From Desulfatirhabdiaceae bacterium (GTDB lineage Bacteria; Desulfobacterota; Desulfobacteria; Desulfobacterales; Desulfatirhabdiaceae), in assembly GCA_050179135.1 (NCBI GenBank), contig JBFXFK010000003.1, positions 4,948 through 68,479 of the forward strand: a stretch of 63,532 nucleotides of DNA, in the 5' to 3' direction. How positions within the stretch are numbered: the first letter of the stretch is position 1; every line of letters starts with the position of its first letter. Positions 54,408-63,532 of this stretch are shown piece after piece. The notes beneath the pieces were generated by a model. The model was not told the DNA's origin, ran no database searches, and saw only the letters and a program-made list of their open reading frames with translations. The position numbers and the translations under genes were made by a program.

Positions 54408-54692
54408 TTTTTGACAGGATTTACAGGATGAACAGGAATGAAAAGATCGGACTTGGTTCCATTTTGGCCCACTGGAGCGTCAAAATGAAATTTTGACATA
54501 AAGCTCAAAAACCTTGAATATACATTTGAACACGTAATTTCAGGTAGTTTTTCGTGATGACTGTCTTGTGTCAAAATGTTGTTTTGACACTCCAGGCCGA
54601 AACCTTGGACGAAGTTGGAGTCAAGCCCAAAAGACCAGACAAGCCCATTTTTTTATAATGAATCCTGTCAATCCTGTAGATCCTGTCAAAAA
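54408..54692. repeat. Nested inverted-repeat structure: outer 32-bp arms made of NACAGGATN 9-mers, inner GTCAAAAT-N3-ATTTTGAC palindromes
   Basis: Outer arms 54408-54439 and 54661-54692 are complementary at 28/32. Inner palindromes lie at 54479-54497 and 54570-54588. The first inner motif recurs at 59523-59562. Confidence 0.75.
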
Positions 54693-54701
54693 AAAACTGA
54701 T

Positions 54702-55097
54702 ATGCCATCCATCCCATACCGCAAACTGATCCGGGACCGGATACCCGAAATCATAAAGCAATCCGGCAAGACAGCCCAAATCCGGACACTGAGCGAGCCG
54801 GAACACCGGAATGCGGTTGGTTCCAAAATTCTGGAAGAGGCCCATGAACTGTTTGCCGAATGGCAGCGGGGCGATCCGGACGGCGTGCTGAAAGAATCCG
54901 CGGACATGGTCGAGATTCTGTTGGCGGCGTTGCAGGTTCACGGATTGACTATTGAAGACCTGATGGCCATGCGCCAGAAACGGGCTGATGAACGTGGCGG
55001 ATTTTTGAAGCGGTTTTTCCTGGAATCTGAACCATCTCCAATCCCTGCTTCTCGAAACCTGCCTGAAAGTCTTTCACCCATCCGACCTGCCGTTTGA
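54702..55097 (+). CDS. MazG-like / phosphoribosyl-ATP pyrophosphohydrolase-like NTP pyrophosphohydrolase
   Basis: YRKLIRDRIPEII...ILEEAHELFAE...ESADMVEILLAAL...RADERGGFLKRFFLE. Start set at ATG 54702. The C-terminal tail runs into the next remnant. Confidence 0.6.
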   Translation: MPSIPYRKLIRDRIPEIIKQSGKTAQIRTLSEPEHRNAVGSKILEEAHELFAEWQRGDPDGVLKESADMVEILLAALQVHGLTIEDLMAMRQKRADERGGFLKRFFLESEPSPIPASRNLPESLSPIRPAV

Positions 55098-55521
55098 TCA
55101 GAATCCCCAGCCCTTTCATGTCAAGGCGTTTCTCTTTCACCGGCGGTCCGGCGCCGGTTCCATGCTGATCAGCTCCTCCAATTTTACCGCAGCCGGGTTC
55201 ATGCGGAATATCGAATGGAACTATTTTTCACCGGGTGAAATCAACCTGGCCTTTGACAACCGGTCGGCCTTTGAACAGGCCGTGACTGAATTTGTGCGGA
55301 TATGGGACAATCTGGCTGTGGCCGTAACGCCGGAATTTATTTCCGGATACCGCAGACGCTTTGTTGTCACCGGGCCGGAAACCGGAACGGCCCATGTGAC
55401 GCGCCCAGGTCTTTTTGAAACCCCGTCCGCGTACGGAAAACCCGTTCAACCGCCAATCATCCCCAATGCGGCCCAGATACCGGTGTTGAAAACCCTGGCC
55501 AACCTTCGATTTGAAACTTGA
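55009..55521 (+). pseudogene. Remnant of a PLD-domain nuclease/helicase gene (N- and C-termini missing)
   Basis: Open frame without a plausible start. FHVKAFLFH...GSMLISSSNFTAAGFMRNIEWN matches the second half of an HKD/PLD motif. The end (IIPNAAQIPVLKTLANLR) looks like the beginning of a helicase domain, then a stop. Confidence 0.5.
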
Positions 55522-55876: not shown

Positions 55877-56338
55877 TTACCCTATTGGCTCCTTCTCCGC
55901 CAGCACATCATCAAACAGATCATTGATCAATTCCTTTTTGTCTGTTTCAGACAGAGAGGACGACGAATAATCCCGATACAGGGTTTCCGCCTTTTTCAAA
56001 ATCTGTGTGGCGGTGATTCCTTCTTGAGAATGCGCCTTGGCCAGATATTTGGCCAGAAGCATTCCGGTCACGGCGCCGGCCACAGCGCCCAGAATCGGCA
56101 ACGCCGCTGTCAGGCCGGCGGATAACGTAATTCCGCCGGTGATATTGAGGGCTCGGGTGATGGATGACAGGGCGGAAGGACCCAGGATGGCCGCAACCGC
56201 AGCCAACAGGCTATCGACAGGCTTTCCCTGTCGGCTGCGTTCTTCCAGAATCTCTTTGATAAACCCCTCAAAACTGTCATACCGGGTTTGACTGTTCTTT
56301 TCCATGATCGTTCTCTTTTTTATGGCTCGCGGAAACAC
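55877..56338 (-). CDS. Hypothetical protein with a Gly/Ala-rich membrane segment
   Basis: LLAAVAAILGPSALSSITRALNITGGITLSAGLTAALPILGAVAGAVTGMLLA. The start may be the internal MEKNSQ (56305). Confidence 0.45.
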   Translation of the reverse strand: MFPRAIKKRTIMEKNSQTRYDSFEGFIKEILEERSRQGKPVDSLLAAVAAILGPSALSSITRALNITGGITLSAGLTAALPILGAVAGAVTGMLLAKYLAKAHSQEGITATQILKKAETLYRDYSSSSLSETDKKELINDLFDDVLAEKEPIG

Positions 56339-56393: not shown

Positions 56394-56651
56394 TCAGCCG
56401 GTTCCCTGTCTGGCTGCTATGCCAACTACCTGCCATCGAGCTTCAATGGTGTCTGCTGATAAATCAGCACCACAATCCCATTCGACAAAGTATCCGCCAT
56501 TATAAACCTTTAGAAATTCGGCGTGATCCTGAAGGACTTCAAACGCCTCATACTTCAGATAGGGCGTGACATCAAAATTGCCAATACGACCATCGTCCGC
56601 AACGATAGACAACACCCAATTGGGTTGAGGAGTGATTTCTGCTATTCTCAT
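56394..56651 (-). CDS. DUF2442 family protein
   Basis: ITPQPNWVLSIVADDGRIGNFDVTPYL...GGYFVEWDCGADLSADTI. Confidence 0.75.
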   Translation of the reverse strand: MRIAEITPQPNWVLSIVADDGRIGNFDVTPYLKYEAFEVLQDHAEFLKVYNGGYFVEWDCGADLSADTIEARWQVVGIAARQGTG

Positions 56652-56920
56652 TGGTCAAGTCCTTTGATTGGAAAAGGTTTCTGGCCGTTTACAGCCAAGT
56701 TCCAGTCAGCAATCAAATCTTCCTGATGAATTTCGATCCACGCGATGACCAACTTGTGTTTGTTCGCTGGCAGTTCACCAGCCAGAAGCGTTCCGTCAAG
56801 AATTGAGTATACTGCAACTTGCCCCTGGTAATCAGCATGTATGTGTGGCACGTGATGTTTCTCAGTATCTCGAAAGAACATCCGGATAAGAATCCCATAA
56901 AACATCGAAATTGTAGGCAT
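56648..56920 (-). CDS. DUF4160 family protein
   Basis: MPTISMFYGILIRMFFRDTEKHHVPHIHADYQG. ATGA overlap with the DUF2442 gene. Start trimmed from 57028. Confidence 0.75.
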   Translation of the reverse strand: MPTISMFYGILIRMFFRDTEKHHVPHIHADYQGQVAVYSILDGTLLAGELPANKHKLVIAWIEIHQEDLIADWNLAVNGQKPFPIKGLDQ

Positions 56921-57083
56921 CCCGCATTTCCTTTCTTTGCTTAGCCTGATACGGTTAACAAGAAAATGACATGAAAATACTTCATTGATCCCCTCCCGAC
57001 CTCCCACCGCTGGGTGTAGGAGGACCAATGGCCAAATCGCCGGAAAGCGAACTGGTCACTATTTTTAAGGTAATTCTGTAATA

Positions 57084-58508
57084 TTAATTATCCCCATCAG
57101 CCTTACAGAATCGCTCAAGGGTCCGGATGGACACGCCAATTGCCCCGGCTGCACTTGCCCGGGATTTGTGTTTGTCCAACGCCCGCCGCCGATACCAGGA
57201 AAGCAGTTGGGATTCTGTCCATGACACATCCATGATCGCCTGCGGCATATCATTTCTGCCAATTCGTTGGGCAGTCGGCCCATCCCCGGTACCAAATTCA
57301 GGACGCGGTGTGGTCTGGTCCAGCCCCCGCAGCACATAATCAAAAATTACGTTCCGCAGCTCCCGCACATTTCCGGGCCATTGATAGTCCTGATATGTTG
57401 AACGAAGAAATTCGGTCACCATTCCAAATTCTGCCTGTTTTTCCGGCGGCATGAATTTTTCTATCAGATCAGGCAGATCCTGGTCAATGAAATCGGACAA
57501 TCGGGGCATGATGACGGATGACCCATACAGCCGGTAAAAAAAATCCAGCCGGAACCGATTTTGCCCGACCATCTGTTCCAGATTTCTGTGGGTGGCCGCG
57601 ATGTACCGCACATCTACCGGAATTTCCCTATTGTCTCCCACCCGCTGAACCCGGCCGGTTTCCATGACCCGGAGAAATTTTGACTGCAAGTATCGGGGTA
57701 ATTCACCAATTTCGTCAAGAAAAAGAATGCCCGTGTCCGCCGCCTGAATGGCCCCGGTTTTTCCCGTGTTTGCTCCGGTAAAGGCGCCTTTGACATGACC
57801 AAAGAGTTCGGATTCGATCAGATTGGGTTGAATCGCCGCGACATTGATGCTGTGACAGGGTCTGACATCCGTTCCGGTCTCCTGAAACGTACCATCCAGA
57901 ATGGCTTTTGCCGCTTCTTCCTTTCCGCTGCCACTGTCCCCGTAAATGAGCACATTCTGTTTGCGAAGAATGTGGCCGTAGCGCATGGCAATGGAAAGGT
58001 TGTCACCAAACGCAGCGGACCATACGGCGGCTCTGGCTTTTGTCAGTTCCGCGGATGTCCCTTTCAGTTCATTCTCCAGATGTGTTTCACACCGCTTGGC
58101 CGCAGCAATCACACCCAGGGGATTCCATTTTCGCATGGTCACAACGTCCAGAATTTCCGGCGCAATCAACTGTGCATATTTTTTTGCGTCATAATGGCGT
58201 GAATCCGTTTCAAGGGCGCCTGCAAACCGGAGTGCGCCAAGAAGCACCAAGGCCACTTCATTTTCCATCTGCCAGACAAGTTGGTCATGATCCGGCAGGC
58301 TACCATTTTGATGGATACTGGCCAGGCGGTGCCTGGCAAAATCTTGTCCAAGTCCAATCAGGGACTGAATGATATGATCCCGGGTTTCATAGATTTTAAG
58401 CAATTTTCGGGCCATCAGTTTGGCCTTGAGCCGTGTGTCGGTGCGATAGGGATTTTTGATACACAGATTGGCAAAATCCGTCAGGTCCTTTACAAGAGAT
58501 TCTTTCAT
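57084..58508 (-). CDS. Sigma-54 enhancer-binding protein with an unassigned about 190-aa helical N-terminal domain
   Basis: [59 protein letters not shown]-terminal HTH AAGAIGVSIRTLERF. Confidence 0.85.
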   Translation of the reverse strand: MKESLVKDLTDFANLCIKNPYRTDTRLKAKLMARKLLKIYETRDHIIQSLIGLGQDFARHRLASIHQNGSLPDHDQLVWQMENEVALVLLGALRFAGALETDSRHYDAKKYAQLIAPEILDVVTMRKWNPLGVIAAAKRCETHLENELKGTSAELTKARAAVWSAAFGDNLSIAMRYGHILRKQNVLIYGDSGSGKEEAAKAILDGTFQETGTDVRPCHSINVAAIQPNLIESELFGHVKGAFTGANTGKTGAIQAADTGILFLDEIGELPRYLQSKFLRVMETGRVQRVGDNREIPVDVRYIAATHRNLEQMVGQNRFRLDFFYRLYGSSVIMPRLSDFIDQDLPDLIEKFMPPEKQAEFGMVTEFLRSTYQDYQWPGNVRELRNVIFDYVLRGLDQTTPRPEFGTGDGPTAQRIGRNDMPQAIMDVSWTESQLLSWYRRRALDKHKSRASAAGAIGVSIRTLERFCKADGDN

Positions 58509-58616
58509 GTGAGTTGCCTTATTCCCTGCTATCCGGCATCAGAAAAACCGCAATAAGCCAAGCCTTCCTGACCTGCTGGCTGAAATCAGGGTGATCTTTT
58601 TTCGTGTATTGTGGGG

Positions 58617-58779
58617 TTAGGCTGTCGGAAATAAATAAATCCACATCTTGCTTGTCTTTTGGCCTGTCTGCTGCGTTACATCCACCGACACATACCCCGA
58701 TATGCACCGGCGGATGTGCCTTGCAGACGAACCAAAATCCGTCGCAATCCAGTGGATTTATTTATTTCCGACAGCCTAA
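58617..58779. repeat. Perfect 28-bp inverted repeat enclosing 107 bp that is itself imperfectly palindromic (163-nt hairpin potential)
   Basis: ttaggctgtcggaaataaataaatccac (58617-58644) and gtggatttatttatttccgacagcctaa (58752-58779), checked base by base. Confidence 0.9.
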
Positions 58780-59000
58780 ATAAAATTTTCACGGTTCCTG
58801 AAAACCTATCCAATTGCCTCATGATGATCCGGATTTTGAATAGATTATATTTTCATGTATGTCATTTTGTCGCGACAATCAACATCAATGTCGGACAATG
58901 TGCCGAATGGATTTTATGGCAGGATGTCATAAAACCCAACCAATAATAAAAAGCATGTATTATCAGATGGATAAAAAATGACCGTCCGATTGATAAATCA

Positions 59001-59016
59001 TGGCACGATATTTGGA
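59001..59016 (+). promoter_or_regulatory. Candidate sigma-54 (-24/-12) promoter
   Basis: TGGCACGatatTTGGA versus consensus TGGCACG-N4-TTGCW: correct spacing, one mismatch at the -12 C. It lies 69 nt upstream of the 59085 ATG and is divergent from the bEBP gene. Confidence 0.4.
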
Positions 59017-59084
59017 TTGCCTGTTTCCAAGATCTGTCGGACGGCATGAACAATCCCTGAACAATTAGACAAAAGGAGACTCTG

Positions 59085-59474
59085 ATGAACATTGCATCGT
59101 TTGATCCCGAGAATGCGTTACACAAAGACAGTCAGTCCATTCAACCCGATGATGTCAACCGGGTCATCGATCATGCGGGTGACATCTGGAACAAATTCAA
59201 AGCCAGCAGGCCCCTGAAACGCTTTATCAATGATGCCGGAAACATGATTTCACTGGTGCGGGACTACTGGAACGGGACATATCGGGATACGCCGGCCTAT
59301 GTCTTTTACGCCATTGTGGCCGCGTTGCTGTATGTGTTCAACCCCGCAGACTTTTTGCCGGATTTCATTCCGTTTGTCGGTCTGATCGATGATGCCATGA
59401 TCATTGCGGCCTGCCTGATGGTTGCGGAAAAAGACATCGAGAAATACATGGCATGGAAAAAGGCTGAAGGATGA
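59085..59474 (+). CDS. DUF1232 (YkvA-like) membrane protein
   Basis: RBS aaggag. YVFYAIVAALLYVFNPADFLPDFIPFVGLIDDAMIIAACL is the family hallmark. Confidence 0.8.
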   Translation: MNIASFDPENALHKDSQSIQPDDVNRVIDHAGDIWNKFKASRPLKRFINDAGNMISLVRDYWNGTYRDTPAYVFYAIVAALLYVFNPADFLPDFIPFVGLIDDAMIIAACLMVAEKDIEKYMAWKKAEG

Positions 59475-59647
59475 AGGCGGAAGGATGAAGGATGAAGGAT
59501 GAAATGGCCGCCTTTTCGCCCTCTGGAGTGTCAAAATGAAATTTTGACATAAAGCCAAAAACGCCGACAGCCAAAACGCCTGAAAGCGGACTGACCACTG
59601 ATCACTAACCACTGACCACAGATTATAACGGTAAACGGAGCAAACCA

Positions 59648-59863
59648 ATGAACATTCTACAAGGCTTCAAATACGGCAACAATACCGGAAAACTGATCGT
59701 CAATGACGTCAATGAGCTGGAATATCAGGGAGATTTGTCCCTGTGCGATGCCGCCAAAATTTCAAATCTTTATCTGGCAAAAGTGGCGGAATGCACCTAT
59801 CAGATGATCGATTCCATTTCGGCCGCCATGTTCAAGGATGAAACCAATCCACCCATTCAGTGA
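59648..59863 (+). CDS. Hypothetical 71-aa soluble protein
   Basis: ORF with acggag upstream, same strand as its neighbours. No motif recognised. Confidence 0.4.
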   Translation: MNILQGFKYGNNTGKLIVNDVNELEYQGDLSLCDAAKISNLYLAKVAECTYQMIDSISAAMFKDETNPPIQ

Positions 59864-59875
59864 AAGGAATGGCCC

Positions 59876-60190
59876 ATGCCAAAAACAACATGTCTGGCAA
59901 TTTGTCTGGTTCTGTCCATGACCGGATGCACCCACATGCAAAAGGCGGCTGGCGTTGGCGCAGCGGTGGGTGCAACCATCGGCCAGGTGGCCTGGCACAC
60001 CACCAATGCCACATTGATTGGCGCCGGCGTCGGTGCATTGATTGGAATCGTATCCGAAGCCGACAAATCCGACCCGGGAAAAACCCGGTGCCATAAAATA
60101 ACGACTCGAACATACAACCCGGACGGTTCGATCCGATCCGAAAAAATTACCGAGCGATGTGATGGCAAAATTACCTATAGGGGATACTGA
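59876..60190 (+). CDS. Glycine-zipper lipoprotein
   Basis: Lipobox-like LSMTGC. AAGVGAAVGATIGQ...LIGAGVGALIGIV. Confidence 0.65.
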   Translation: MPKTTCLAICLVLSMTGCTHMQKAAGVGAAVGATIGQVAWHTTNATLIGAGVGALIGIVSEADKSDPGKTRCHKITTRTYNPDGSIRSEKITERCDGKITYRGY

Positions 60191-60427
60191 CGACATAGGC
60201 ATTGTCGCAAAAACGGGAACCAATTATACGGATACGGCTAAAAAGACAATTTTTTCCATATGTTGAACAGATATTTTTCTCTTGTAAAACAGATTGAACT
60301 TTAATATGGAAGCAATGCTTTCCATGCTTCTCGCGTTCAAAAAGCGTCCATCTCAGAGGCACCGGGGACACAGGAAATACTTTTTGTTTCTGCACACGCT
60401 GCATCTTTTTGGTGAGATTGCTTTTGC

Positions 60428-60532
60428 TATAGCTTTTAAGATAATGATTTTGGGAAGGCAGCAGGGAGGGGATAGGCCTGTAGGCCATCCCCGACCGATA
60501 ACGCACCCAAAATCTTTATCTTGAAAGCTATA
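60428..60532 (-). repeat. About 100-nt long-hairpin repeat element, copy 2 (inverted relative to 47444-47540)
   Basis: The reverse complement reads agataaagattttgggtgcgttatcggtcggggatggcctacaggcctatcccctccctgctgccttcccaaaatcattatct. Confidence 0.85.
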
Positions 60533-60620
60533 TTTGGTCCAAATGACGATCAAAACTGTTTGCCGATATCTCGACGGTATCCGCATGGTTCGGTTTCCAT
60601 AACAGGGGGGATTTTCATTC

Positions 60621-61358
60621 ATGACGTTCATTGACCGGCTGAAAAACGTATCGGCTCACATTGACCAATCCATCCAGTCCAAACTTTCACCACACACAGA
60701 GATCATTCAAAAAATCCTCGAATCCGAATTCAACAGCGAATTCATTCAAAACCGGAAACTGTTCATCCCCGGGGATGTCATACGGGAAAAGATTGAAGAA
60801 AGTCTGGCCCATCAACCGGGGCTTCGTCTCAAGAACATCGAATTCAGGGAGGATTCCATATTTCTGATCGCATCATACCCCGTTGTAAAGATGCCGGTGG
60901 ATATCGTCGCCACGTTTCGAATCACGTCTTCATCCATCACAAAATCCAATCAGAAGATTGTGATTTCAGTCCTGGAACAGGCGTTCATTCCGGAAATACA
61001 CATCACGGATTTCCTGCTCAAAATGGCCAATTCCACCATCGATCGGGTGCTCAGGACCGGGCTTGGGGCAAACTTTCTGCTGCCGGAAAATATTACCTAT
61101 AACCAATCCACCCGGGAATACACCTGTGATCTGTCCGGTTTGGCGGTCATCCGCCAGTTGCTGGCGCCCCGGATATTGAACCGCTGCGTGCTGGATTTCA
61201 TTTCCCTGGATATAGCGCATCAGGCCGGCGGGTTGTTGATACAGGCGGTCTCTACAGATCTGGCCAATGACATTTCCAGGGGTGTGGTCGGTACGATTCG
61301 GAAAGGGGTTGATCTGTTGGGCTCGATGAAAAAATGCAATAAAGAGTTGAAAGACTGA
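60621..61358 (+). CDS. Hypothetical 245-aa protein, no recognisable motif
   Basis: Long ORF. The stop TGA lies inside a GACTGAAGG repeat. Confidence 0.5.
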   Translation: MTFIDRLKNVSAHIDQSIQSKLSPHTEIIQKILESEFNSEFIQNRKLFIPGDVIREKIEESLAHQPGLRLKNIEFREDSIFLIASYPVVKMPVDIVATFRITSSSITKSNQKIVISVLEQAFIPEIHITDFLLKMANSTIDRVLRTGLGANFLLPENITYNQSTREYTCDLSGLAVIRQLLAPRILNRCVLDFISLDIAHQAGGLLIQAVSTDLANDISRGVVGTIRKGVDLLGSMKKCNKELKD

Positions 61359-61460
61359 AGGCTGAAGACTGAAGGTGCGGCTTTGCAGCATTCAGGCTTT
61401 TTTAACCGCGAAATACACGAAACGCGCGAAAAATTGATCTGCACAGGAAAGGAAACAGGC

Positions 61461-61988
61461 ATGAAAGACGGTCAGAGCGATTCACTTCAGGAACTGTTTG
61501 CTAATGTCAGCCAAGCGGTTGAATTGGCCAAAGAGTGGAAAGAAAAGAATTTTCAATCCGGACAACTTCCGGACATGATCAAAAAGCAGTTTGACAGGCT
61601 CTATCAGATACTGCCGACGTTTGGGGACGACGCCGATTTTCAGAATGCATTGCCGGTCTATCTGAACATCGCAAAATTTTTGAAGAATCGGCACAATTCG
61701 GACTTTTTGATCAGTCTGGGTACGGCCCTGTTTTTATGCCACAAAAAAGAGATCACGGATCTTGCGGAAATCGCACAAAAAGAGATTTTGAAAATGGCGG
61801 TGGATCACAAAAAGGCAGATCCATACCAGCGTGAGACCCGGATTTATTACAATCGGGACGGCAGCCCCACAGAATACTGTGTCAAGGAATCCATCAGCCG
61901 GGATGACCTGATATCCGATGTGCGGGAAGAATTTCTCAGGACAGACAGTGAAACGGTCAGTATCAAACTTTTTCCGGCGGAGGGGTAA
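61461..61988 (+). CDS. Hypothetical 176-aa protein
   Basis: ATG 61461 after ggaaaggaaacagg. No motif recognised. Confidence 0.5.
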   Translation: MKDGQSDSLQELFANVSQAVELAKEWKEKNFQSGQLPDMIKKQFDRLYQILPTFGDDADFQNALPVYLNIAKFLKNRHNSDFLISLGTALFLCHKKEITDLAEIAQKEILKMAVDHKKADPYQRETRIYYNRDGSPTEYCVKESISRDDLISDVREEFLRTDSETVSIKLFPAEG

Positions 61989-61993
61989 CACAC

Positions 61994-62485
61994 ATGGGCT
62001 CAGATGATTTTACAGGATTGATTGTCGGGCTGTTGTCAATGGTCGCAACGGTAGCCATTACGTTCTGGAATCAGATCATGGACTGGTCCGGAAAAGTACT
62101 GTTTCCGTGGCTGGATCAGAATTTCAAGGAAATTTCTCACCTGGTCAAGGACGCCTTTATCTGGTTTGACAACAATGTGGCGGTTCCGGTCCGACAGATT
62201 ATCAAACAGGCCTGGCGGGAACTTCGGGAGCATCTCTTGAAACTGGCGGTTCAGTTTGAAAGGGAATCAACCAGTGAGTGGGTCAGACGGTGGTCGGGGT
62301 ATATCATCAAAAAGCTGGAGAGCGGGAAACTGGCTCCGGTAAAATTTGAAGCCGAGGAAGTGGTTTCCTGGGATGAGCTGCCGCCGGATGTGCGTCAGGA
62401 GTGGCTGAAAAAAGGGATGCCCAATCAGGCGTTGAATGTCACGGAACTGCGGGACAAACAGGTTGAAATGGATATGACGTATTGA
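61994..62485 (+). CDS. N-terminally anchored hypothetical protein, paralogue of 62649-63008
   Basis: TM GLIVGLLSMVATVAITFW. Shares FW.xI.D, WL.QN and .FD..V blocks with the next ORF. Confidence 0.5.
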   Translation: MGSDDFTGLIVGLLSMVATVAITFWNQIMDWSGKVLFPWLDQNFKEISHLVKDAFIWFDNNVAVPVRQIIKQAWRELREHLLKLAVQFERESTSEWVRRWSGYIIKKLESGKLAPVKFEAEEVVSWDELPPDVRQEWLKKGMPNQALNVTELRDKQVEMDMTY

Positions 62486-62519
62486 TGGGGGCTTTCGCGG
62501 TCATTTGATTTGAATTAAA

Positions 62520-62603
62520 AATTTTTAACCACGGAATACACGAAAGACACGGAAGAGGGTAGGTCAGGGTGCCGCGGTCCTTTGCGGCTCCCTGACACCA
62601 CGC
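62520..62603 (+). repeat. Intergenic element: TTTTTAACCACGGAATACAC motif plus a 13-bp-stem GC hairpin
   Basis: Hairpin gtcagggtgccgc (62563-62575) / gcggctccctgac (62584-62596). Repeated at 63025-63118. Confidence 0.8.
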
Positions 62604-62648
62604 AAACCGACTGATCGGCAGGCGTGAAAACGATATTGGGAACAAAAC

Positions 62649-63008
62649 ATGGACGATATCATTACATGTGTCATTGGCGGCATTGCCGCAATCGGCGCAA
62701 TCATTGCCGCCGCCTGGCTGGTTTCCAGATTTTGGGATGATATCCGGGATCATGTGGCAGCCTGGTTGCGGCAAAACAACATGCAGGAAAGCATGCTGAT
62801 GGATGTGATTGTGCGCTTTGATCAGACGGTCAGTAGGGTCAGAAGCCGGATATTTGCCAAAACCACCAAAACCGGCCAACAGAAGGTAATGGAAAAAATT
62901 CTGACAGATGAAGAGATAGCGGCGCTTCAGGAAAAGGAACCGGAGATATTTGCCAGATTGAAACAGTATGGCGCTGCTGAAAAGAACCTTCTTTATCTGT
63001 TTCAATAG
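62649..63008 (+). CDS. N-terminally anchored hypothetical protein, paralogue of 61994-62485
   Basis: TM IITCVIGGIAAIGAIIAAAWLV; FWDDIRDHVAAWLRQNN...VRFDQTV. Confidence 0.5.
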   Translation: MDDIITCVIGGIAAIGAIIAAAWLVSRFWDDIRDHVAAWLRQNNMQESMLMDVIVRFDQTVSRVRSRIFAKTTKTGQQKVMEKILTDEEIAALQEKEPEIFARLKQYGAAEKNLLYLFQ

Positions 63009-63024
63009 GGATCTGAAGGAAAAT

Positions 63025-63118
63025 AATTTTTAACCACGGAATACACAGAACACTCGAAAAGAGCAGGGAGCGGGTAGGTCAGGGTGCCGCGGCTTTTTGC
63101 GGCTCCCTGACACCATGC
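63025..63118 (+). repeat. Second copy of the TTTTTAACCACGGAATACAC + GC-hairpin element
   Basis: Hairpin 63078-63090 / 63099-63111. Same flanks (ggtaggtcagggtgccgcgg...gcggctccctgacacca). Confidence 0.8.
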
Positions 63119-63246
63119 TGAGAAGGTCGGGCTGAGGGCCAACTATTCATGAGTCCAAAATCGGGAATATGCCAGAATGCGGGAATGCGGCACATTCATC
63201 CTTCCGCCTTCATCCTTTTCCTTTTGCACGCAGGAGACAATCAAAA

Positions 63247-63532
63247 ATGGGAGTATGGAAAAACAGGATTCATCAGGACACCTCATCGCCGGAACCCCGG
63301 TCACCAGAGCCAGGCCCGTTGAAACCGGAAACACCGGAAATGAGTCGCATGGAAACCTTTGTTGTCGAACCGCCAATGCGAAATATGGATGAACTCATTG
63401 TTCCGTTGAATGTCAGAAAGCAGCTTGAAGCGGCCATGAACCGTATCCGCTACCATGAGGTTCTGTATGAAGACTGGAATCTGAAAAAAATTGATCCCTG
63501 CGGGCGCCGGGTGGCGGTCAATCTGTACGGCC
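63247..63532 (+). CDS. N-terminal part of an AAA+ ATPase (runs off the window)
   Basis: The open frame runs to the window end. DELIVPLNVRKQLEAAMNRIRYHEVLYEDWNLKKIDPCGRRVAVNLYG matches the segment that usually precedes the GPPGTGKT Walker A in CDC48-like stand-alone AAA proteins. Start could be 63247 or 63340. Confidence 0.55.
   Translation, partial: MGVWKNRIHQDTSSPEPRSPEPGPLKPETPEMSRMETFVVEPPMRNMDELIVPLNVRKQLEAAMNRIRYHEVLYEDWNLKKIDPCGRRVAVNLYG

Follow-up and report, generated by a model that had tools for sequence, protein, structure and literature searches.

We analysed a 63,532-nt stretch of a contig from a Desulfatirhabdiaceae bacterium (JBFXFK010000003.1), hereafter the window, whose numbering is used for all feature coordinates. 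Towards its end the gene of a sigma-54 activator, a bacterial enhancer-binding protein (bEBP), lies divergent from a run of small genes that ends in the start of an AAA+ ATPase gene (Table 1). A first-pass annotation of this DNA had described these open reading frames (ORFs), the motifs of the bEBP and a DUF1232 membrane protein, all of which were reproduced in our ORF list and Pfam search, and had presented the divergent genes as one same-strand run of eight ORFs laid out like a sigma-54 operon. Comparison with homologous contigs (labelled L002, L010 and so on) points instead to a regulator pair accompanied by at least two separable cargo modules. As judged from these comparisons, the conserved core of the locus is the bEBP together with a small protein, p153, which had been left out of the earlier unit despite its consistent linkage to the bEBP.

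Table 1. Features of the bEBP locus and their positions in the window.
Feature	Position	Strand	Description
p153	55877-56305	-	142 aa from ATG; 153 aa from GTG 56338
DUF2442	56394-56651	-	Pfam 2.3e-12
DUF4160	56648-57028	-	Pfam 2.9e-22
bEBP (sigma-54 activator)	57084-58508	-	474 aa; Pfam Sigma54_activat 4.7e-52
Miniature inverted-repeat transposable element (MITE)-like palindromic insertion	58620-58778	none	~159 bp; 28-bp perfect terminal inverted repeats
Candidate enhancer (upstream activating sequence) palindromes	58868-58897	none	TGTC/GACA type
Sigma-54 -24/-12 promoter-like element	59001-59016	+	one mismatch to consensus
DUF1232 membrane protein	59085-59474	+	129 aa, two transmembrane segments; cargo module 1
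p71	59648-59863	+	small soluble protein; cargo module 1
Glycine-zipper lipoprotein (borderline assignment)	59876-60190	+	104 aa; cargo module 1
p245	60621-61358	+	soluble, no family; cargo module 1
p175	61461-61988	+	soluble; first gene of AAA+ cassette (cargo module 2)
p163	61994-62485	+	N-terminal membrane anchor; cassette
p119	62649-63008	+	N-terminal membrane anchor; cassette
IetA-like AAA+ ATPase start	63247 (or 63340)-63532	+	first 95 aa; runs off window end

The closest syntenic relative is L002, a 6.2-kb contig from an oil-sands tailings metagenome with 90-96% DNA identity. The ratio of nonsynonymous to synonymous substitution rates (dN/dS) against this contig is 0.07-0.32 for all six shared ORFs (0.07 for the lipoprotein, 0.11 for p153, 0.18 for p71 and 0.22 for the DUF1232 gene), and the ORFs common to both contigs are therefore real coding genes under purifying selection. 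In a search for DNA past 63532, the only identical contig with these proteins was a 2.6-kb Logan contig that ends at 63098.

The bEBP translation contains a Walker A motif (GDSGSGKE), the GAFTGA loop, a Walker B motif (LFLDEIGEL) and a C-terminal helix-turn-helix (HTH), and the AAA+ sigma-54 interaction domain that defines the class was identified by PF00158 at 4.7e-52. Residues 183-398 match the central domains of bEBPs in the PDB at 1e-46 to 1e-32, and Foldseek aligns the core with those of FleQ, NtrC1 and PspF at template-modelling (TM) scores of 0.7-0.8. The best PADLOC model, RtcR_PspF2 (CARF-AAA-HTH; 4.1e-68), covers residues 184-469 only. Residues 1-183 are uncovered by Pfam, NCBIfam and PADLOC. 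The N-domain in this part, about 150-183 aa long, is modelled by AlphaFold2 as an all-alpha helix bundle, with a mean predicted local distance difference test score (pLDDT) of 88.8 and a predicted TM score (pTM) of 0.86, for which Foldseek found no fold match in the PDB (best E 0.61, TM score at most 0.34). The earlier suggestion that this N-domain falls outside the known sensor families is borne out, and its reading as a putative sensor domain of no known family is supported by the searches and the model alike. A CARF identity was rejected, as the PADLOC alignment starts at residue 184 and the model is all-helical without a Rossmann-like sheet; Pfam, PADLOC and the structure model also led us to reject REC, PAS, GAF and V4R.

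To find relatives of the N-domain we ran phmmer exhaustively against 1.84 billion representative proteins (50%-identity clusters), since a k-mer search with the N-domain alone missed even the query protein itself. Of the eight matches returned, the six real ones all proved to be bEBPs, 435-530 aa in length. They share the motifs W-x-x-NPY, GALRYA and GVIAAAxRCE. A full-length family profile scores seven members at 495 bits or more, against at most 275 bits for thousands of generic bEBPs. A scan of genome contigs with a five-sequence N-domain alignment recovered a single locus, from the same lineage as L008, and a metagenome scan with an N-domain alignment recovered one 1.5-kb fragment. By all of these searches, the N-domain family appears small, specific and rare. 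Within the bEBP gene, the N-domain region (57957-58508) has a dN/dS of 0.81 against L002, compared with 0.17 for the AAA+ core, on ~20 substitutions only; the sensor may be under relaxed or diversifying selection.

A p153 homologue directly follows the bEBP gene, often overlapping its stop codon, in 6/6 lineages whose contig extends that far (homologues were counted in L002, L008/9/14, L010, L013, L012, L020 and L022). These proteins are 142-153 aa long, with BLASTP E values from 5e-61 down to 2e-11 in the most distant lineages, and p153 is by this count the most consistently linked partner of the bEBP. Hydropathy analysis places two Gly/Ala-rich hydrophobic segments at residues 43-61 and 78-96, and the N- and C-terminal helices are conserved. 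No relative of p153 was found in Pfam, NCBIfam, PADLOC or the PDB. The DUF4160/DUF2442 toxin-antitoxin (TA)-like pair sits between the two genes in the window. L002 lacks this pair, with bEBP and p153 genes 95 nt apart, and by this comparison the pair is an insertion outside the conserved system.

The first-pass annotation had also pointed to a -24/-12 element 69 nt before the first divergent ORF. This element, TGGCACGATATTTGGA, is indeed present and identical in L002; scored against TGGCACG-N4-TTGCW, it deviates once, at the C of the -12 GC. Chance alone would yield about 0.87 one-mismatch sites per window, and the site is weak when taken alone. Sigma-54-like sites are, though, found in eight intergenic regions of seven lineages, all pointing away from the bEBP. 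Outside the window they read TGGCACAAGATTTGAA in L009, TGGCATCGAATTTGAT in the divergent region of L010, TGGCATGAGAATTGAA in L010 at 136 nt before the p179 gene of the cassette described below, TGGCATCGATTTTGGA in L013, TGGCACAACTATTGCT in L011, TGGCACGCTCATTGCT (12/12) in L020, CGGCACGTAAAGTGCA in L021 and TGGCACGCCTGCTGCT in L022. The closer relatives share the unusual -12 of the window, with TTTGR instead of TTGC. An equally good, correctly oriented site was rare in per-region shuffles (P ≤0.0215 in 7/8 regions). These comparative data make TGGCACGATATTTGGA a credible promoter candidate. Scans of 58400-63532 for sigma-70-like and terminator-like elements returned fewer matches than shuffled sequences and were uninformative.

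Candidate enhancers accompany these sites. In the window they are TGTCGCGACA (58868-58877) and TGTCGGACA (58889-58897), whose first bases lie 133 and 112 bp ahead of the -24 element. Palindromes of the form TGTC-N1-2-GACA or GACA-N3-TGTC occur roughly 110-155 bp upstream of the -24 in five of the eight regions, against 0.37 expected; that number was reached in 0/200000 shuffles, for a motif defined post hoc. The site before the L010 cassette likewise has a GACA-N3-TGTC palindrome about 110 bp further upstream.

Two other elements lie close to this regulatory region. The MITE-like insertion, bounded by the terminal inverted repeats TTAGGCTGTCGGAAATAAATAAATCCAC (arms at 58617-58644 and 58752-58779), separates the bEBP gene from the candidate enhancer; it is precisely missing from L002 and does not belong to the system. 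The bEBP gene itself contains, on its coding strand, a second sigma-54-like match with one mismatch, TGGCCCGAAAATTGCT, at 58399-58414 (-), codons ~32-37. In four lineages this match occupies the same codons (also L008 540-555, L010 3597-3612 and L011 10098-10113) and overlaps the conserved peptide (L/M)(A/V/D)RKLL, with the codons AAA-TTG-CT identical in all four; it is probably a by-product of protein conservation and less likely an internal sigma-54 binding site.

Module 1 of the cargo begins with the DUF1232 protein, which matches PF06803 at 5e-10 (39.4 bits, cut-off 23). A gene for a 38% identical protein, together with a second, more divergent copy, lies in the L022 operon that is divergent from a distant bEBP homologue, P0005. 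L010 and L013 each encode a p71 homologue in their divergent operon (66 and 68 aa; E 4e-10 and 1.5e-11). The lipoprotein was seen in the window's lineage only. Its N-terminus reads LSMTGC, and it has YiaD/OsmB-like NCBIfam matches; the glycine zipper assigned to it in the first-pass annotation holds at the borderline only (Gly-zipper_YMGG 1e-6, 28.8 bits against a cut-off of 28.9). The last protein, p245, retrieved only itself and a relative truncated by an insertion sequence (IS) from a k-mer search of 5.8e9 proteins, and is 24% identical (E 2e-11) to a 253-aa protein encoded divergently from the bEBP in L009. In relatives from oil-sands and hydrocarbon metagenomes (L002 5355-6170; L003-L007), an insertion ends the p245 homologue after residue 162; judged by eye only, the inserted DNA encodes a sequence resembling the C-terminus of an IS4/IS5-like transposase.

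Module 2, the p175-p163-p119-ATPase cassette, is conserved across genera. Compared with their counterparts in Desulfatirhabdium butyrativorans (L010), p175 is 44% identical to a 179-aa protein (4e-61), p163 is 73% identical to a 163-aa protein and p119 is 49% identical to a 117-aa protein (9e-43). The ATPase fragment in the window (95 aa) shares 55-59% identity with the beginning of the 347-aa ATPases from L010 and L013 (55% with L010). These two ATPases consist of a single classic-clade AAA module (PF00004 plus AAA_lid_3), and their best PDB match is the D2 domain of p97/VCP (1.6e-41). The cassette ATPase, full length in L010, L013 and L016, matches four IetA models of PADLOC, with a best E value of 3.8e-31 across most of the protein, and full-length ATPases of L010, L016 and L018 match IetA at 3.8e-31 to 2.2e-37; the assignment to the IetA type thus comes from full-length orthologues, the window holding the first 95 aa only.

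The first-pass annotation had called p163 and p119 paralogous membrane-anchored proteins. The anchors are upheld (transmembrane segments at residues 6-24 and 4-22, respectively), and the paralogy has only weak support (BLASTP E = 0.29; hhalign E = 0.012, juxtamembrane only). A C-terminal domain is shared by p163 and p175 (hhalign E 1.2e-4). We also observed a C-terminal motif, (D/E)xLPxDV(R)(E/Q)x(F/W/Y), in p175, p163 and the ATPase tail (for example SWDELPPDVRQEWL, SRDDLISDVREEFL and PDKLPPDVREEYE), located at 61900-61988 in p175, at 62340-62420 in p163 and in the ATPase tails at L010 5809-5900 and L016 11740-11840. This motif may be a common docking element.

A tblastn search of plasmids showed that the cassette also occurs with no bEBP nearby. 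Plasmid pNFSY04 of Nostoc flagelliforme (L016) encodes p200, which is p175-like (8e-13), p169, which is p163-like (4e-33, 39% identical to p163), a p119 remnant with a frameshift and an ATPase of 357 aa that shares 63% identity with the Desulfatirhabdium one. A Streptomyces plasmid, also without a bEBP, encodes p171, p164 (p163-like, 4e-10 to 9e-8), an ATPase (49% identical) and then a 1197-aa CHAT protein, and adjoins a Shedu gene. In Nostoc (L016 164-8779), a filamentous-haemagglutinin/ShlB two-partner secretion pair immediately precedes the cassette on the same strand, and an IS630 comes after it. By these comparisons the cassette is a self-contained, separable unit, which has its own sigma-54-like promoter in Desulfatirhabdium and has become linked to the bEBP-p153 switch in Desulfobacterales. 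A four-gene AAA+ cassette, with an IetA-like ATPase and three novel partners, common to Desulfobacterales, Nostoc and Streptomyces, is thereby defined; its members in all three are annotated as "hypothetical protein" or "ATP-binding protein".

Further searches with the cargo proteins and p153 were largely negative. The DUF1232 protein gave only a spurious weak REase_II match in PADLOC (5.7e-4), and p71, the lipoprotein, p245, p175, p163, p119 and p153 gave none at E up to 0.1. PDB profile searches with p153, p163, p175 and p245 retrieved only low-complexity designed helical proteins, scans of metagenomes and of viral contigs with a p163 alignment found none, and matches in PHROGs were uninformative.

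We compared the neighbourhoods of bEBP homologues to assess which genes travel with the switch. The first-pass annotation had named a lack of co-occurrence beyond this genome as a refuting outcome, and its ORFs do co-occur with a bEBP in L010, L013, L009 and L022. L010 and a related metagenome-assembled genome (MAG), L013, both carry homologues of the bEBP, p153, p71, p175, p163, p119 and the ATPase. Here, genes for an 81-aa protein, the p71 homologue and a 253-aa protein run divergently from the bEBP gene, which is followed by that of p150; convergent with these two are the genes of p179, p163, p117 and the 347-aa ATPase, with the ATPase gene next to p150. A Dynamin_N fragment adjoins the L010 locus. 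In a Desulfobacterales MAG (L008/9/14) the divergent gene encodes the 253-aa p245 homologue, and trpA and trpB, with no cassette, lie downstream of the bEBP-p153 pair in L008/L014. In L022 the divergent genes comprise the two DUF1232 copies, a 207-aa protein and an LRAT-family protein; in L011/12 the divergent gene encodes a 322-aa protein, within an element that also carries Prim-Pol, an integrase and DarT/Macro; and on the P0014 contig, where an integrase and IS elements are close by, the cargo consists of a 76-aa protein and an SDH protease. The cargo is thus seen to vary between the lineages compared, in contexts that are mobile or defence-rich. In L022, the lineage of P0005, the gene after the p153 homologue (p143) encodes a Csm6_6H/Cas_Cas02710 protein (L022 4191-5501), and the 207-aa protein is RNase H-like by eye only.

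Several known systems resemble parts of this locus. The first-pass annotation had likened the layout to that of pspF and pspABCDE, where small membrane-associated proteins are likewise encoded in a sigma-54-dependent operon divergent from its activator gene, and a membrane-level signal is plausible here too. PspF itself lacks a sensor domain at its N-terminus and is held in check by PspA acting in trans. The bEBP studied here, in contrast, has an all-alpha N-domain (~150 aa) and a partner, p153, with two predicted transmembrane segments and predicted co-transcription. PspA, PspB and PspC domains, whose absence had already been noted, were not matched by any ORF, and the cargo varies between lineages. 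With an N-domain and no PspA, the locus lacks the defining features of Psp; the analogy covers the divergent sigma-54 arrangement and is loose. RtcR and rtcBA offer a sensor domain in cis and a divergent sigma-54 operon, and RtcR_PspF2 is the best PADLOC match for the AAA+/HTH part. RtcR-like proteins also appear in defence-related catalogues. RtcR, however, is a CARF-AAA+-HTH protein, whereas the N-domain here is not CARF and neither rtcA nor rtcB is present.

IetAS combines the AAA+ ATPase IetA with the subtilisin-like IetS and is a plasmid-stability TA-like pair of pTiC58, reportedly listed by Gao and colleagues in 2020 as an anti-phage system. The cassette ATPase is IetA-like, with a single classic-clade AAA module; its partners differ, being p175, p163 and p119 of no known family rather than IetS, or, in the Streptomyces version, a CHAT protein. 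The arrangement of an AAA+ ATPase with small accessory proteins controlling the deployment of an effector also recalls the "thresholding" conflict systems (PMC7159879). Such nucleoside triphosphate (NTP)-dependent systems are enriched in deltaproteobacteria, cyanobacteria and actinobacteria, and NtrC-like ATPases can act as threshold-setting controls (Kaur et al. 2020, PMC7159879). They centre on MoxR-vWA, FtsH or GTPases, and none of their signature domains was found here; conversely, we found no description of the AAA+ cassette or the bEBP family in that paper. PADLOC 2.0 detected no complete catalogued defence system; its matches were limited to the bEBP core, with RtcR-like models, and the ATPase, with IetA. 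A search of the literature on DUF1232, IetA and RtcR/PspF/CARF found no description of this type of locus, and we found no searchable catalogue entry or paper describing the N-domain, p153, p71, p245, p175, p163 or p119, which databases name "hypothetical protein". New here are the sensor domain, the partner protein p153 and the AAA+ cassette; the locus otherwise belongs to a known kind, the accessory module controlled by a bEBP and sigma-54.

These features suggest a mechanism. The bEBP would be co-transcribed with p153, which would report a membrane-level signal to the N-domain; this domain would otherwise hold the AAA+ ring inactive. Once active, the bEBP would bind the TGTC/GACA palindromes roughly 110-155 bp upstream and open sigma-54 RNA polymerase at the -24/-12 site (59001-59016). 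The cargo so expressed in this genome would consist of two modules head to tail, DUF1232-p71-lipoprotein-p245 and then p175-p163-p119-AAA+, and would act at the membrane. bEBPs are defined by their sensor domains, and if p153 is the signalling partner of the N-domain, this would be a new input route into sigma-54 transcription.

We propose that the locus is a sigma-54-gated accessory module in which a conserved two-protein switch governs exchangeable cargo that is most likely conflict-related and membrane-acting, and give this reading a probability of about one in two. Conflict here covers phage defence, abortive infection or the maintenance of plasmids and other elements, and we judge a membrane-stress response to be a close second. 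The regulatory logic is supported by the sequence comparisons, while the function is one that we infer. The conflict reading is favoured because cargo turns over, the surrounding DNA is mobile and defence-rich, copies are broken by IS elements and the ATPase is IetA-like; a role in conflict, defence or element maintenance is further favoured because the family is rare and patchy and the ATPase has a CHAT-linked relative. Since a sigma-54 promoter stays silent in the absence of its activator, this design fits products whose constitutive synthesis does harm. Conflict systems usually show just such a signature, in which a conserved switch is combined with interchangeable, unannotated cargo in mobile contexts, and sigma-54 gating of cargo of this type has, to our knowledge, hardly been explored. 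In a bolder version, which we advance only tentatively, the bEBP-p153 pair would sense infection or membrane damage, keep toxic membrane-acting effectors silent and let them be made upon attack, as a sigma-54-gated abortive-infection or defence system with exchangeable cassettes, of which p175-p163-p119-AAA+ would itself be a new stand-alone conflict module that plasmids of cyanobacteria and actinobacteria also carry.

The main competitor is an envelope- or membrane-stress regulon of the Psp kind, in which p153 would sense damage, the bEBP would induce membrane-stabilising proteins and an AAA+ chaperone, and no conflict function would be involved. The divergent layout shared with pspF/pspA-E, the sigma-54-like promoters and the predominance of membrane or lipoprotein products in the cargo are all as such a regulon would have them, and the weak resemblance of the lipoprotein to OsmB/YiaD-type stress lipoproteins, the classic unfoldase clade of the ATPase and the Dynamin_N fragment beside the L010 locus add to its appeal. 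It sits less well with a bEBP family that is very rare and patchy, with cargo that is nearly all different by lineage (a 322-aa protein in one, an SDH protease in another, a 207-aa protein with LRAT in a third), with loci that lie in integrative elements or are IS-disrupted and with a cassette that is carried on plasmids and is paired with a CHAT protein beside Shedu; nor was PspA, PspB, PspC or any other known stress-module domain found. We regard this regulon as possible but doubtful. Less probable still, and in our view unlikely, is a partly fortuitous juxtaposition, by which the bEBP would control DUF1232-p71-lipoprotein, and perhaps p245, next to a cassette that is an independent mobile module with its own promoter. 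The cassettes without a bEBP in Nostoc and Streptomyces, the trpA and trpB genes that stand in place of a cassette after bEBP-p153 in L008/L014 and the repeat elements in the gaps of the window would be explained in this way, as would the lack of a sigma-54-like site before p175. Chance would not so readily place the cassette 1-4 kb from a bEBP family this rare both in the window and, separately, in L010/L013, with two different arrangements, or give the L010 cassette a sigma-54-like site 136 nt upstream and a GACA-N3-TGTC palindrome. That the small ORFs are decaying or spurious in a repeat-rich accessory region, with the bEBP acting on a distant target, we consider very improbable: the large repeat-filled gaps and a p245 that is nearly an orphan and IS-truncated in a relative could be read so, but every ORF shared with L002 has a dN/dS of 0.07-0.32, p175, p163, p119 and the ATPase keep 44-73% identity across genera and the promoter-like sites recur locally.

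Returning to the proposed sigma-54-gated conflict module, a number of observations weigh against it. No cargo protein except the ATPase matches a known defence family, and a cargo rich in membrane proteins (DUF1232, the Gly-zipper lipoprotein) fits a plain envelope-stress regulon equally well. Neither IetS nor another peptidase was found among the window ORFs (to 63532) or beside the ATPase in L010, L013 or L016. The -12 element of the window reads GG, not GC. No sigma-54-like site precedes p245 or p175 in the window, and the cassette would therefore need read-through or an unseen promoter; read-through would have to cross gaps of about 102-430 nt holding hairpin repeats. Homology between p245 and the 253-aa protein of L010/L013 is not demonstrable (hhalign E 0.56). 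The sample is small and comprises about seven bEBP lineages, mostly on short metagenomic contigs, with the cargo partly visible in some. The signal, the contact between p153 and the bEBP and the activities of the cargo are what we infer, as is the choice between envelope stress and abortive infection or defence.

The accessory character of the surroundings, which the first-pass annotation had stressed, is supported by the TA-like pair, a MazG-like gene, integrases, IS elements, DarT/Macro and the Csm6-like protein, found in the window or its relatives. The MazG-like gene (PRA-PH 2.3e-5; 54615-55097) and a 119-aa ORF without a family match (55162-55521) lie upstream of p153 and are repeat-flanked. 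Dispersed repeats also occupy the gaps between cargo genes. These gaps are large: the one that follows DUF1232 measures 173 nt, and those preceding p245, p175, p119 and the ATPase gene measure 430, 102, 163 and 238 nt, respectively. Repeats resembling repetitive extragenic palindromic (REP) elements, with a strong hairpin (GTCAGGGTGCCGC...GCGGCTCCCTGAC), lie in the p163/p119 gap (62517-62603) and the p119/ATPase gap (63022-63118), with a partial copy before p175 (61394-61431); the matching gaps in L010 are 11-77 nt long and without REP-like repeats. Runs of the heptamers GGATGAA/GGCGGAA, with the palindrome GTCAAAATGAAATTTTGACA, occur at 59460-59561, 63172-63217 and 54462-54595, in direct and inverted orientation, and appear to be a genome-wide dispersed repeat family.

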